NCBI GenBank assembly: GCA_046570105.1 | Contig: JBKHVI010000006.1 | Location: 19,347-83,346, forward strand | Source of the DNA: Bacteriovoracia bacterium | GTDB lineage: Bacteria > Bdellovibrionota > Bacteriovoracia > Bacteriovoracales > Bacteriovoracaceae | Direction: 5' to 3' | DNA length: 64,000 nucleotides | In this document: positions 53,388 through 58,808 of the stretch, piece after piece | Layout: every line of letters begins with the position of its first letter | How positions within the stretch are numbered: position 1 is the stretch's first letter | The notes under the pieces: model-generated | Told to the model about the DNA's origin: nothing | The model's input: the letters and a program-made list of their open reading frames with translations, nothing else | The model's database searches: none | Translations under genes and position numbers: made by a program

Positions 53388-54308
53388 GTGCAAAAGTTTT
53401 ATCCCGTTCGCCTCAACACTCTCAGGAAAGACGACGTTCTAGCGTTCGATGTCTATGTGAGCGTTGGGGAGAAGTTTGTACAGTATATCCACGCTCAGGA
53501 TGTGTTTGAAGGGGAGAGATTAGATAAACTCAAAAATAAAGGTGTACGAAAACTCTTTATTCCGACTGAACAAGAAAAGAATTATCTGCAATACCTTGAA
53601 AAAGCACTCGATCAACTGAGTAATACTTCGCACAGCATAGAAAATCGCACACAGCTGGCCCACGACTCTTTGATAACAGCGGCAGAGAATGCCGTTGTCA
53701 ATTTTGAAACGGAAGCGGGCCTTCGTCAGCAGCAGGATCATCTCGTAAAAATTGCTAACTTCGTCGGCTCAGATAGAAAAGTCATCAAGCAGATTATGGA
53801 GAATATCAATTCATCATTTGATAACAATCACCACGCTGCCAACGTCTCTTCACTTTGTATGAGTGTCGCTGCCAAAGCGGGGCTAACTGATAAGCAAGAG
53901 GTGAGTGAGCTTTCGATCGCGGCACTTGTTCATGATGTGGGCAAAGAGCGCTTCAAAGAAAATTACGATGCGCTTGGTGATAAGATGTCGGCCCAACAAA
54001 AGCAGGCCTATCGTGCCCATGTTTCGGATGGAGTGACTCTCTTGCAAGGGAAGCCGTTTATCAGTCCGCGAATTTTGGGCCTAGTTGCGGCCCATGAAGA
54101 ATTAGGTCAAGGCCGAGGTTATCCAGAAAAGAAAGATGTTTTCCAGCTGCCCCTGAGTTATCAGATTTTGATTATGTGTAATCGCTATGATCATTTTCAA
54201 ACGCAGCAACAATTGCCCACGATGAAAGCCATTGATGCATTTTTTGAAAAGCACAGTAACGATTTTCCTGACGAACTCATTACTGTGCTGGCGTCTGTCT
54301 TAACTTAA
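53388..54308 (+). CDS. HD-GYP domain protein (degenerate)
   Basis: HAANV, LVHDVGK, AHEELGQGRGYP; AAGGA SD before GTG. Confidence 0.8.
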   Translation: MQKFYPVRLNTLRKDDVLAFDVYVSVGEKFVQYIHAQDVFEGERLDKLKNKGVRKLFIPTEQEKNYLQYLEKALDQLSNTSHSIENRTQLAHDSLITAAENAVVNFETEAGLRQQQDHLVKIANFVGSDRKVIKQIMENINSSFDNNHHAANVSSLCMSVAAKAGLTDKQEVSELSIAALVHDVGKERFKENYDALGDKMSAQQKQAYRAHVSDGVTLLQGKPFISPRILGLVAAHEELGQGRGYPEKKDVFQLPLSYQILIMCNRYDHFQTQQQLPTMKAIDAFFEKHSNDFPDELITVLASVLT

Positions 54309-54889
54309 TCGAGCGCGTACTCAACCATGAGGCTGTCCCAATTGCGTCCATTCGTCACACGCATTTGCGCGACATAGAACATTTCGGATTGATAAATATT
54401 GATCCAGAAATCATTAACGATCATTTTATCAAAATACTTAAGCTGCCAATAACGAAGAATATTTGTTTCAGTCAGAAGTTCACTGTGGCGATAGATCTGT
54501 ACTGTTTGCTCGATCTCCCATTCACGAATCACTTCCGCATCATTGGTCAATTCCCAGGCATTACGTGTTTGAGCGAATTGAAATTTTAAACCATCGGCTT
54601 TAGCGAGAATAGTAGCCTTAAGTTTTTCACTGAGGTGTGGGTTAGTAATAAATTTCGAACAGATCGCTTGGGTGCTGGTTTTGTATTCACAAATGTAGCC
54701 ATTCGCTTGCAACTGGCCCATGCGTGCTCTCTCTGCTGGGCTTGAAAGATAGAGAGGTTGAAAGTTTTTAAAACTTACGATGCGATATTCGCCTTGAAAA
54801 CTTTTTGTCCCAGACATAATTTGTGGCGCTGACTGTGCCAGTGCATTGAACGATAAAAGCATGAAAAAAACTAATGACCTCATACCCAC
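54305..54889 (-). CDS. Secreted hypothetical protein
   Basis: Signal peptide ending ALA; Cys pair; start GTG 54889 or ATG 54883. Confidence 0.7.
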   Translation of the reverse strand: MGMRSLVFFMLLSFNALAQSAPQIMSGTKSFQGEYRIVSFKNFQPLYLSSPAERARMGQLQANGYICEYKTSTQAICSKFITNPHLSEKLKATILAKADGLKFQFAQTRNAWELTNDAEVIREWEIEQTVQIYRHSELLTETNILRYWQLKYFDKMIVNDFWINIYQSEMFYVAQMRVTNGRNWDSLMVEYALD

Positions 54890-55104
54890 CTCACTTTCTT
54901 AAAATGCTAAAGGTGGCCTTAGGCGGGCGGCATTGAGAAAAGCACTCCAGTTAAAAAAGAGTTTCACAAAGTGTTTGATTACGAGTGCGCATTGCGGCAA
55001 GTGTCGGAAATAATATAATGAATCTCGCTCTAGATTCACAAGTGATCGTAAACATGGACTTCAGAGGGAAGCGGTGTTAATTTCCTCGAACATTTATACG
55101 GTTA

Positions 55105-55153
55105 CCACTCGGTCATAGCGTTTTGACTATGGCCATAATTATATCCCAGGAGG
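55105..55153 (+). promoter_or_regulatory. Putative S6:S18-type ribosomal leader
   Basis: Hairpin GGTCATAG/CTATGGCC (55111-55134) followed by CCC-AGGAGG. Confidence 0.45.
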
Positions 55154-55157
55154 AACC

Positions 55158-55781
55158 ATGATCTATGAAACGGCGTTCGTCGTGAAGCCCGACGCCACGG
55201 AAGAAGCTATCAATTCCGTAAAAGCTCTCATCGCAGACACAGTTAAAGAGTTCGGTGGCGAAGTTCTCGTCAACGATACTTGGGGCGTAAAAACTTTCGC
55301 TCAACCTTTGGAGTCAGGCCTTCGTAAAGGCAACTTCTTCTACGTTATGTACAAGTCGAAAGGCTCAACTAACGCAGAAATCGAGCGTAAATTCCGCATC
55401 AATGAATCTGTTGTTCGTTTCATGATTGTTAAGCTCGGTGACGATGCTCAACAAGATGAAGTTGTTAAAGGTTACAAAAACCCGAACCACACTCAAGCCG
55501 CTGGCGCCGCAGTTGAAGGCGAAGAAGGCGAAGAGTTGACTGGCGATAAAGAGAAGCGCATGCACTCTAAGCGCCGCTCTTGCTGGTTCTCAGCGAAGAA
55601 AACTTCTCCAGATTGGAAAGATCCTAAGACTTACGGTTGGCTAGTAAACGAGTTCGGAAAAATTTCTCCAGCTCGTATCACTGGTTTGACTCCTAAGTTC
55701 CAACGTCAAGCTTGCGACGCTATTAAGCGTGGCCGCGCGATGGGTCTTATCAGTTACACATCTGGCGACTACGCTCGCTAA
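55158..55781 (+). CDS. rpsF-rpsR: Fused 30S ribosomal proteins S6 and S18
   Basis: S6: YETAFVVKPD..WG.K.FA..RINESVVRFMIVK; S18: DWKDP..EFGKISPARITG..QRQ..AIKRGRAMGL; one uninterrupted frame. Confidence 0.92.
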   Translation: MIYETAFVVKPDATEEAINSVKALIADTVKEFGGEVLVNDTWGVKTFAQPLESGLRKGNFFYVMYKSKGSTNAEIERKFRINESVVRFMIVKLGDDAQQDEVVKGYKNPNHTQAAGAAVEGEEGEELTGDKEKRMHSKRRSCWFSAKKTSPDWKDPKTYGWLVNEFGKISPARITGLTPKFQRQACDAIKRGRAMGLISYTSGDYAR

Positions 55782-55789
55782 TCGGGGAA

Positions 55790-56755
55790 GTGATGTCGAC
55801 TGAGATTTTACTACCACCACGCTTAAGCCTTTCGCGCTTGTTGCTCCTTGGAGCTTCGAGTGTTGTCTTGTGCCTAAGTTATTTGATGGCGCTTTTCACA
55901 CCGTTCCCTTTGGCGATGGCCACTGTGATGTACGGCCGTGTGAAAGGTTATGCTCTCGGTTTGGCGGGGTTCTCAGTTTGTCTATTGCTAGGAGCATTCT
56001 TCTTCAAAGACTACACGCTCGCCGCGAGCTACTTACTCCTTTTGACTATCTCAACGATCGTTTCAGAATCGTCGTTGCGCTCTTGGCGCCCTGTTCGCAC
56101 AGTGGTTGTCACGGGAGTCGTCTTTTTGGGTTTAGTGGTGGCGATTGGTGCTGGTTACTTGCAAGATCAAAATCTCACTCTGCACTCAGCTGTCACTAAA
56201 GAAGTGACTCTTATTCTCGAGCGCTTAACTGAAGCCCGTACACAAGGAATGTTAACTCAAGACTTAAGCGATCTCGGACTTAATCGTCCAGCAGGAGAGA
56301 TCGCTCAAGAGATGATCGAAACGCTGCCTGGCTATATGTTCGCTGGCACTTTCTTTATTCTTTGGGTCAACATGTACCTCGTGTTGAAAGGCCGTCGTTT
56401 ATTGCAACCGGAACAAGATCACACTTTTGATGAACGCACGCTTTTAGACTTCAAAGTTCCTTTTGCAGGAGCTTATTTAGTCGCCGCAAGTTTGGCGCTC
56501 GCCGTATGGGGAGATAAATTCCCATGGGGTACGGTCGCCGGATTAACAGCGTTACGTGCAGTCGGTGTCTTTTATTTCTTTCAAGGTTTTGGAGTGAGTT
56601 TGAGCTTTCTCAATCACTTCAATGTTGTGGGCTTCTTTCGCACACTCGCCATTATGGTGGTGGTGTTTTTTGCTCCATGGTTATTGGCAGTGGTGGGACT
56701 CTTCGATACGTTTTTCGACTTCAACCACAAATTTAAAAAACAGGTTTCAAATTAA
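55790..56755 (+). CDS. DUF2232 (YybS-like) membrane protein
   Basis: Polytopic; YFFQGF..GLFDTFFDF; typical position between rpsR and rplI. Confidence 0.85.
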   Translation: MMSTEILLPPRLSLSRLLLLGASSVVLCLSYLMALFTPFPLAMATVMYGRVKGYALGLAGFSVCLLLGAFFFKDYTLAASYLLLLTISTIVSESSLRSWRPVRTVVVTGVVFLGLVVAIGAGYLQDQNLTLHSAVTKEVTLILERLTEARTQGMLTQDLSDLGLNRPAGEIAQEMIETLPGYMFAGTFFILWVNMYLVLKGRRLLQPEQDHTFDERTLLDFKVPFAGAYLVAASLALAVWGDKFPWGTVAGLTALRAVGVFYFFQGFGVSLSFLNHFNVVGFFRTLAIMVVVFFAPWLLAVVGLFDTFFDFNHKFKKQVSN

Positions 56756-57461: not shown

Positions 57462-58808
57462 ATGCAAAACGACAAAATTGGCCAAGAACTTCCTCATGAT
57501 TTCACTGCGGAAAAAGCCCTGCTTGGGTCACTCTTAATCGACAATCGTGCTTTTGATGAGATCAGTGATTTGGGTTTAAAGTCGGATGACTTCTATCATC
57601 CCCAATACGGCATGATCTTTGAGGCCATGCGCGATTTGCATGTGGGCTCTGAGCCTTTTGATCTTGTGACGGTGAGTTCAAAACTGAACGATCTTGGACG
57701 TCTTGAGCGCGTCGGTGGGCAAAGCGCACTTGTGTCGCTGGCAGAAGATATCCCATCAGCGGCTAATATTCATTCCTACGCCAAATTAGTTAAACAGAAA
57801 GCGATTCTACGCGAAGTGGTAAGAACCGCATCTCGTGTCGTACAAGCGGGCACCAATTTTTCTGGCGACGTGGAAGATTTCTTAGGCGAAGTCGAATCAA
57901 ACTTCTTTAAACTCACCAGTCAAACGAAACAAAATCGCATGCGCTCTTTGAAAGAGTCGCTGCATGAATCACTCAAAGATCTTGAGCGATCAAGCCGCAG
58001 CAAAGGTGAGATTACTGGTATTCCTACCGGTTTTGCTTCCATTGATAGCAAGCTCTTGGGCCTTCAGCCGGGTCAATTAATTGTAATCGCCGCTCGTCCT
58101 GGTGTGGGTAAAACCTCATTGGTGCTCAACTGGGCAGTTAATGGTTGTAAACAATCTGGGCTTCCTATCGCTATTTACTCGATGGAAATGTTAACTAATG
58201 AATTAGGACTCAGGATTCTTTCTTCTGAGGCCAATATTGATTCAAGAAAGATTCGTACCAAAGACTTTGGCCCCCATGACATGAAGAACATGTTTACCGC
58301 CGTTCAAAATCTTTCGCGCTTGCCGATTGTGATTAACGACTCGGGTGCTAGTACCTTGATTGATATTCGTTCTCAGTGCCGGCGGCTTAAGGCCGAGCAA
58401 GGTTTAGGCATGATCATCATCGATTACCTTCAACTCATGCAGCCTCACGTAAGAAAGCCTTCACGTGAACAAGAAATTTCAGAAATTTCCCGAGGCCTAA
58501 AAGAGCTCGCCAAGGAATTGCAGTGTCCTATCATTGCACTTTCGCAGTTGAACCGTTCATCGGAAGCACGAACAGACAAACGTCCGCAGCTCTCCGATCT
58601 TCGTGAATCAGGCGCAATTGAACAGGATGCGGATATTGTGTGTCTCATTCACCGTCCCGACATGGGCGATCCGAATTCACCGAAGAAGGGGATTGCGACT
58701 TTGATTGTCGCTAAGAACCGTGCCGGTGAACCGGGTGATGTGGATTTGGCCTGGATTGCTTCTCAAACAAAATTCGCGGAACTCGACTTCCAGCGACCAC
58801 AGGCCTAA
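57462..58808 (+). CDS. dnaB: Replicative DNA helicase
   Basis: AARPGVGKT, IDYLQL, LSQLNR, DLRESGAIEQDAD, AKNRAG. Confidence 0.97.
   Translation: MQNDKIGQELPHDFTAEKALLGSLLIDNRAFDEISDLGLKSDDFYHPQYGMIFEAMRDLHVGSEPFDLVTVSSKLNDLGRLERVGGQSALVSLAEDIPSAANIHSYAKLVKQKAILREVVRTASRVVQAGTNFSGDVEDFLGEVESNFFKLTSQTKQNRMRSLKESLHESLKDLERSSRSKGEITGIPTGFASIDSKLLGLQPGQLIVIAARPGVGKTSLVLNWAVNGCKQSGLPIAIYSMEMLTNELGLRILSSEANIDSRKIRTKDFGPHDMKNMFTAVQNLSRLPIVINDSGASTLIDIRSQCRRLKAEQGLGMIIIDYLQLMQPHVRKPSREQEISEISRGLKELAKELQCPIIALSQLNRSSEARTDKRPQLSDLRESGAIEQDADIVCLIHRPDMGDPNSPKKGIATLIVAKNRAGEPGDVDLAWIASQTKFAELDFQRPQA

Follow-up and report, generated by a model that had tools for sequence, protein, structure and literature searches.

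The genes for ribosomal proteins S6 and S18, rpsF and rpsR, are joined in frame into a single gene in the window, by which we mean the whole 64,000-nucleotide stretch of DNA analysed here, and this fusion is the sole source of both proteins in the genome to which the window belongs. S6 and S18 are normally separate chains of the small ribosomal subunit that pair with one another, and in bacteria core ribosomal proteins are seldom fused to each other. From the evidence taken as a whole, we consider it quite likely that a genuine rpsF-rpsR fusion, which would have originated early in the class Bacteriovoracia, supplies the 30S subunit with a single-chain S6:S18. We regard the single-chain S6-S18 as a real, modestly surprising variant of a very well known pair. 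Throughout the class two essential proteins appear to come, obligately, from this one gene, which offers a natural test of current ideas on 30S assembly: that S6 and S18 act as one unit, that free S18 is a liability and that stoichiometry matters.

The open reading frame occupies positions 55158..55781 of the forward strand, starts with ATG and encodes 207 amino acids followed by a TAA stop, in one frame with zero internal stops. Its Shine-Dalgarno (SD) sequence, AGGAGG, was located by sequence scan at 55148..55153 of the same strand; in the comparative sample described below, 48 of the 55 fused genes have an SD-like motif of at least five bases ahead of the true start. Both halves score above curated cut-offs in Pfam and in NCBIfam. 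The S6 half matches PF01250 (Ribosomal_S6) over residues 3-92 with 73.5 bits (cut-off 27), covering positions 2-90 of the 90-position profile, and the S18 half matches PF01084 (Ribosomal_S18) over residues 148-198 with 53.8 bits (cut-off 21); the equivalog models TIGR00166 for S6 (51.6 bits, cut-off 42.9) and TIGR00165 for S18 (55.7 bits, cut-off 38.75) were passed as well. The S6 moiety, residues 1-110 (55158..55487, forward strand), takes in the S6 fold together with a C-terminal helix and a VK.YK.P motif, both conserved, as delimited by Pfam, an AF2 model and Foldseek. The S18 moiety, residues 134-207 (55557..55778, forward strand), was delimited by Pfam and by alignment to solved chains, and lacks the set of zinc ligands considered below. 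Comparison of this half with solved ribosomes matched 57 distinct S18 sequences; from residue 134 onward the fusion corresponds to residues 3-72 of the 76 of a solved free S18 chain and, since the alignment begins at residue 3 of the free chains, the S18 half is complete. An earlier sequence-only reading had described one 207-residue frame holding S6 and a complete S18 and had proposed a profile check for the two families; the description is confirmed on each of these points. The organism is an uncultured member of the Bacteriovoracia, a lineage of predatory bacteria. In the window's genome, an assembly of 3.0 Mb in 131 contigs that is 87.8% complete, there is a single S6 match and a single S18 match, both within this frame.

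We surveyed 151 genomes of Bacteriovoracia, the window's own included. A single full-length match with no stop was found in 143 of them. The remainder consist of one genome with an in-frame TAA in the linker (G064), three with two separate genes as judged by direct translation (G072, G129, G172), one in which the gene is fused yet was detected as two matches (G025, the sole sampled member of a second family), one with a partial match only (G149) and two with no match (G161 and G170, which are 89% and 86% complete). Two genomes, G172 and G030, had been listed as fusions by the length of their open frames and were rejected when translation showed stops between the halves. In a per-genus sample of 60 loci with their flanks, from 59 genera, 55 loci are fused and five are split, the fifth split locus being that of G012. 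All seven outgroup loci, from other classes of Bdellovibrionota, have rpsF and rpsR split, directly adjacent in two and about 450-500 bases apart in five. The Pfam S18 profile (PF01084) was searched against 101 class genomes, of which 100 have a completeness of 90% or more, and matched exactly once in every one, so no fused genome retains a spare rpsR. The sole member of the second family, G025, stands somewhat apart: its genome is 0.9 Mb in 4 contigs, its linker is the shortest (23 amino acids), DUF2232 is absent between the fusion gene and rplI, and its basal position is uncertain on account of a long branch.

The same architecture recurs in public collections. A protein database yielded 481 matches, with both Pfam domains present in all 120 matches listed, and a collection of species genomes yielded 207 fusion loci. 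The database entries are named 'S6', 'S18' or 'S18/S6'; annotation pipelines label the fusion by one half only, and it has gone unremarked in databases. The complete genome of the cultured Peredibacter sp. HCB2-198 carries the fusion locus at 70% identity, and such cultured relatives make proteomics and cryo-EM practical. By these genome comparisons, the S6-S18 fusion is a real, lineage-wide feature of the class Bacteriovoracia, for which it serves as a simple sequence marker. The sequence-only reading had raised the possibility of a lineage marker and had suggested surveying Bdellovibrionota for the fusion and for a second free rpsR. The marker holds at the level of the class (143/151 genomes; 55/60 per-genus loci) and fails for Bdellovibrionota as a whole, where the seven loci from other classes are split, and unrelated lineages also have fusions; no second rpsR came to light in the 101 genomes with their single S18 matches.

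Alignment of the 55 fused proteins divides the region between the two domains into three zones: a conserved segment following S6, with the motif VK.YK.P, in which K104 and P109 are present in at least 90% of the 55 sequences; a variable middle zone with many K, E and D residues; and, leading into S18, a conserved basic segment. Between the domains lie 23 to 43 amino acids in the 55 genes, with a median of 35. An AF2 model computed with the 55-protein alignment has a pLDDT of 84.1 and a pTM of 0.76. Its S6 part is predicted with pLDDT 87-97 over residues 1-110 and 93-97 over residues 1-100, with the elements E2-9, H15-31, E35-46, E57-66, H69-81, E85-94 and H96-105, and crystal structures of S6 (1ris, 1lou, 2j5a and 1vmb) are among the best Foldseek matches to the model, at E values of 4e-9 to 3e-7 and with TM scores by target of up to 0.92. 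In the model, therefore, the N-terminal half of the fusion is predicted to adopt the alpha/beta fold of S6. The S18 part is also confident, and disorder is confined to residues 113-128 (55494..55541, forward strand), the variable acidic linker, where pLDDT falls below 50. The pTM of 0.76 suggests a defined arrangement of the S6 and S18 domains. Where an acidic, flexible linker of about 35-40 residues had been proposed, its acidic character and a disordered segment at residues 113-128 are borne out; the region is not uniformly flexible, since the predicted helix reaches about residue 105 and, with the VK.YK.P motif, accounts for the residues up to about 110.

Translation shows that G072, G129, G172 and G012 have real two-gene arrangements. 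In these split forms S6 ends 4-13 residues past the VK.YK.P motif. Within 10-50 bases there is then an SD-like motif and an ATG, and S18 carries an N-terminal extension of 45-65 residues, acidic and partly repetitive, whose final part is the basic lead-in also seen in the fused linker. The fused linker thus corresponds to tails that the split form already has. The locus of G064 is of another kind: an in-frame TAA in the linker is followed by no ATG, GTG or TTG before the S18 domain. The genome is 99% complete, and this TAA-interrupted gene is its sole S18. The TAA may have come from an error in sequencing, may mark a recent lesion or may be a stop codon that is read through.

Could the single frame itself be an artefact of sequencing or assembly, two ordinary genes being in fact separated by a stop or frameshift that it masks? 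The window's assembly is fragmented, at 131 contigs, and the TAA of G064 lies inside the linker of a relative; against this, independent contigs from other studies are identical to the window or differ by substitutions only. One DNA contig (run X3, record 17) spans 55000-55900 with 4 substitutions and 0 gaps, another (run X2, record 13) spans 55136-55612 with 0 differences, and no insertion or deletion at the fusion locus was found in contigs from the 4 runs compared. The portion of the linker singled out for a check of reads by the sequence-only reading, 55440-55560, is bridged by the X2 and X3 contigs with zero indels. Metatranscriptome contigs from two libraries, belonging to a related strain, also bridge the junction, one over 55456-55621 and one over 55373-55579, and differ from the window by substitutions alone; these RNA-library contigs speak to continuity of the sequence and are not proof of transcription. 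When the 20 substitutions of the related strain are applied to the frame, they produce 4 amino-acid changes and no stop. The frame is, moreover, kept in 143 of the 151 class genomes, and variation in linker length is made up of whole-codon differences alone. The artefact is effectively refuted. A second proposal concerns the in-frame ATG at 55560..55562 (M135; forward strand, sequence scan), from which free S18 might be made in the window's genus in addition to the fusion, giving two products per gene. M135 sits where a free S18 would begin, one residue past the position aligned to residue 3 of free S18 (fusion residue 134), and 11 of the 55 fused genes, mostly from the window's nearer relatives, have an ATG at the equivalent position. 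The ATG had been reported together with a weak SD; the codon is there, and no SD-like motif of at least four bases was found upstream of it in a scan of the window, against AGGAGG at the true start. Nor does an internal start look like a conserved requirement: 27 of the 55 fused genes have a linker with no in-frame ATG, GTG or TTG, and an internal start with an SD-like motif of at least five bases occurs in only 4 of the 55. On these counts, the fusion must be the sole route to S18 in most genera. Separate synthesis from 55560 is thus unsupported as a conserved feature, and we judge its additional use in the window's genus to be very improbable; given its place at the natural N-terminus of S18, the ATG could be a relic of the start region of rpsR.

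The remaining rival accepts the fusion gene and holds that the linker is cut after translation, so that ribosomes contain ordinary separate S6 and S18 and the fusion serves only for co-translation or co-folding. Residues 113-128 are predicted to be disordered and vary in length and sequence, as would befit a segment accessible to proteases, and the secondary split in G072 implies that a free zinc-less S18 is viable in the lineage. Yet the variable part of the linker has no conserved cleavage-type motif in the 55 sequences, no gene for a dedicated protease accompanies the locus, and the naturally long tails would let the pair sit on the 30S subunit without cleavage. We hold cleavage to be improbable and infer that the fusion protein stays uncleaved in the ribosome. 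Under the preferred reading of an intact single chain, one mRNA with one start codon would give a 23-kDa polypeptide in which the S6 fold and a short conserved helix are joined to a complete zinc-less S18 by about 16 residues of disordered acidic tether. It would most likely fold as an intramolecular S6:S18 unit, given that Fu et al. 2014 (PMC3895269) describe free S6 and S18 as dimerising ahead of their binding to the complex of S15 with the central domain of 16S rRNA, and S18 by itself as insoluble. The single chain would then enter the 30S platform, with a 1:1 stoichiometry fixed and no pool of free S18.

The fusion lies in a stable gene cluster. On the forward strand it is followed by a gene for a DUF2232 membrane protein (55790..56755; Pfam, 68.3 bits), by rplI, encoding L9 (56765..57352; Pfam and synteny), and by dnaB, encoding the replicative helicase (57462..58808; Pfam and synteny), and neither ssb nor priB lies between the S6 and S18 halves of the window locus, which agrees with the neighbourhood as it had first been described. 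Downstream rplI is present in 59 of the 60 ingroup loci, the exception, G131, stopping at a contig end. A DUF2232 gene stands between rpsR and rplI in 59 of the 60 ingroup loci and in 3 of the 7 outgroup loci, an unexplained stable insertion into a cluster of ribosomal-protein and replication genes. The window's L9 is 195 residues long, of which about 45 at the C-terminus form a tail rich in Ala, Lys and Glu; open frames for L9 span 174-236 amino acids in the ingroup versus 147-150 in the seven outgroups, indicating an extended L9 throughout the class.

Upstream of the gene, folding and alignment define a leader element at 55108..55134 (forward strand), made up of a CTCG anchor and an 8-bp hairpin in which 55111-55118 pairs with 55127-55134. 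The hairpin is located about 15 nt upstream of the SD, its CTCG and GGGC(C/T) flanks are conserved, and in the window it folds with a dG of -11.0 and a z of -3.49. The anchor is present in 55 of the 60 ingroup loci; of these 55, 47 fold at a dG of -8 kcal/mol or lower and 47 reach z < -1.5 relative to shuffles. In the upper stem the sequence changes between genera while pairing is preserved. A hairpin of the same form is found in 6 of the 7 outgroup leaders, before an unfused rpsF (z < -1.5 in 4 of the 7), and the hairpin therefore predates the fusion. An Rfam scan of 54300-56000 at E <= 1 returned no family, and so no match to the model of the known rpsF leader. Fu et al. 2014 (PMC3895269) describe a hairpin before rpsF that binds S6:S18 and has a conserved CC bulge. 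The Bacteriovoracia element resembles that leader in being a hairpin just upstream of the SD of rpsF, whereas the CC bulge was not identified in the window hairpin; it may be a divergent version of that leader, and we propose it as a candidate operator for S6:S18 feedback. Farther upstream, about 60-70 nt before the start codon, many genera share a conserved ACATTT motif (55088-55096 in the window), which may be a promoter or transcript-start element. A scan of 54850-55900 for sigma-70 promoters and terminators gave nothing above chance upstream of the gene on the forward strand.

The fusion is not unique to Bacteriovoracia. A search of 1.84 billion protein representatives gave 2880 matches, and among 23 distant fusion candidates, 149-295 amino acids long, 21 have both Pfam domains. 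Those matched over their full length are 26-32% identical. Gemmatimonadota/Longimicrobiales is the name attached to one cluster, and for 10 further distant fusions a look-up of clusters yielded no taxon. Short contigs with a singleton account for many of these putative fusions, and several are on megabase contigs. They have the same domain order, S6 then S18 in one chain, combined with unrelated linkers and the usual DYKD-type S18 sequence, and for these last two reasons they look independent. A full-text literature search of openly accessible main texts found no published description of a natural S6-S18 fusion. The main text of Yutin et al. 2012 (PMC3353972) does not mention a fusion, S18 or Bdellovibrio, and the genome paper on Peredibacter HCB2-198 (PMC13147790) does not mention rpsF, rpsR, S18, ribosomal proteins or fusion.

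The S18 half of the fusion had been said to lack zinc ligands, and this is correct: in alignment with the outgroups, C142 is kept, and S145, T178 and F181 stand in place of Cys, Cys and His. The window's S18 accordingly falls outside the zinc-binding (C+) bS18 subclass defined by CX2CXnCX2H. The full CxxC...CxxH set is found in 0 of the 55 fused genes, in 3 of the 5 split ingroup genes (G129, G172 and G012; it is absent in G072 and G064) and in 7 of the 7 outgroups; the first Cys of the motif is invariant among the 55 aligned fused proteins. Of the 21 distant fusions of other lineages, 19 could be scored and 0 of these 19 have the full set, which, as a count of fused proteins alone, is weak evidence. 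According to Boss et al. 2024, the CX2CXnCX2H motif of bacterial bS18 is common in Terrabacteria and nearly absent in Pseudomonadota, and the Cys motif of human mitoribosomal bS18m shares a [2Fe-2S] cluster with bS6m; the latter places the zinc site at the contact between S6 and S18. It is conceivable, though we think it unlikely, that the peptide tether replaces the zinc knuckle of S18, giving a zinc-independent 30S platform with an obligate single-chain S6-S18 and possibly feedback through the leader hairpin. This reading fits the counts for fused, split, outgroup and distant fused genes given above, and also the sharing of the same Cys region between bS18m and bS6m in mitoribosomes. It could run in two directions, the tether having made the metal site dispensable or loss of the site having made the tether necessary. 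The tight association of fusion with loss of zinc ligands provides a testable hypothesis on the purpose of the S18 metal site.

The order of events was approached with trees of linked and unlinked markers. In a maximum-likelihood tree of the linked DUF2232, L9 and DnaB (64 rows, 928 columns, LG+G4), the split taxa with zinc ligands are nested among fused taxa, with the pair (G072,G129) at 99/81 and the pair (G172,G012) at 99/99 within a clade of 38 rows at 99/97. A constraint that unites all ligand-less taxa in one clade lowers the likelihood by 53.8 lnL units (p-AU 0.016). The unlinked RpoB tree (41 rows, 1143 columns) lacks G012, G017 and G014, in which RpoB was not found with the query used; its backbone is poorly supported, it joins G129 with G172 (79/98), and a single-origin tree, at a difference of 7.3 lnL units, is not rejected by it (p-AU 0.316). 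For these tests the groups were defined by the trait after the first tree had been seen, and the models used were site-homogeneous. A quick linked-marker tree and its AU test (p 0.86) were discarded, the constrained tree lying 55 lnL units above the free tree and a careful search finding a better tree than both; a gene tree of S6 and S18 (180 columns) had too little resolution for the position of the split taxa to be read from it. A single origin of the fusion is thus disfavoured by the linked markers and not by RpoB. If the linked-marker tree is right, fusion and ligand loss would have changed together several times, and repeated, correlated changes of this kind are a possible alternative history. 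The most likely history, we hypothesize, begins with a zinc-binding ancestor whose genes were split and whose proteins had long tails; a single fusion, accompanied by loss of the ligands, would have taken place early in the class and been followed by a few secondary splits or lesions (G072, perhaps G064). A single early fusion is favoured in that twofold regain of a four-ligand site seems unlikely.

The canonical bS6:bS18 heterodimer, of which we take the S15-S6-S18-rRNA complex of PDB 1G1X to be an example, is built from the products of separate rpsF and rpsR genes. Both families and both folds are complete in the fusion as well; the difference is that two genes have become one polypeptide with one start codon and no second copy. 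The order of genes in the window is the arrangement that Fu et al. 2014 (PMC3895269) report for most Deltaproteobacteria, rpsF-rpsR-...-rplI without ssb or priB in between. For the zinc site, the closest comparison is with zinc-binding and zinc-less forms of bS18, the mycobacterial paralogue pair among them, whose motif positions are homologous to those of the Bacteriovoracia S18; in mycobacteria the two forms are paralogues, whereas the zinc-less S18 of Bacteriovoracia has no paralogue and is fused to S6. The mitoribosomal bS18m-bS6m pair, as described by Boss et al. 2024, likewise ties S18 physically to S6, and does so through the same Cys-motif region of S18. There the tie is a metal bridge between two chains, while in Bacteriovoracia it is a peptide tether, in proteins that have lost the ligands.
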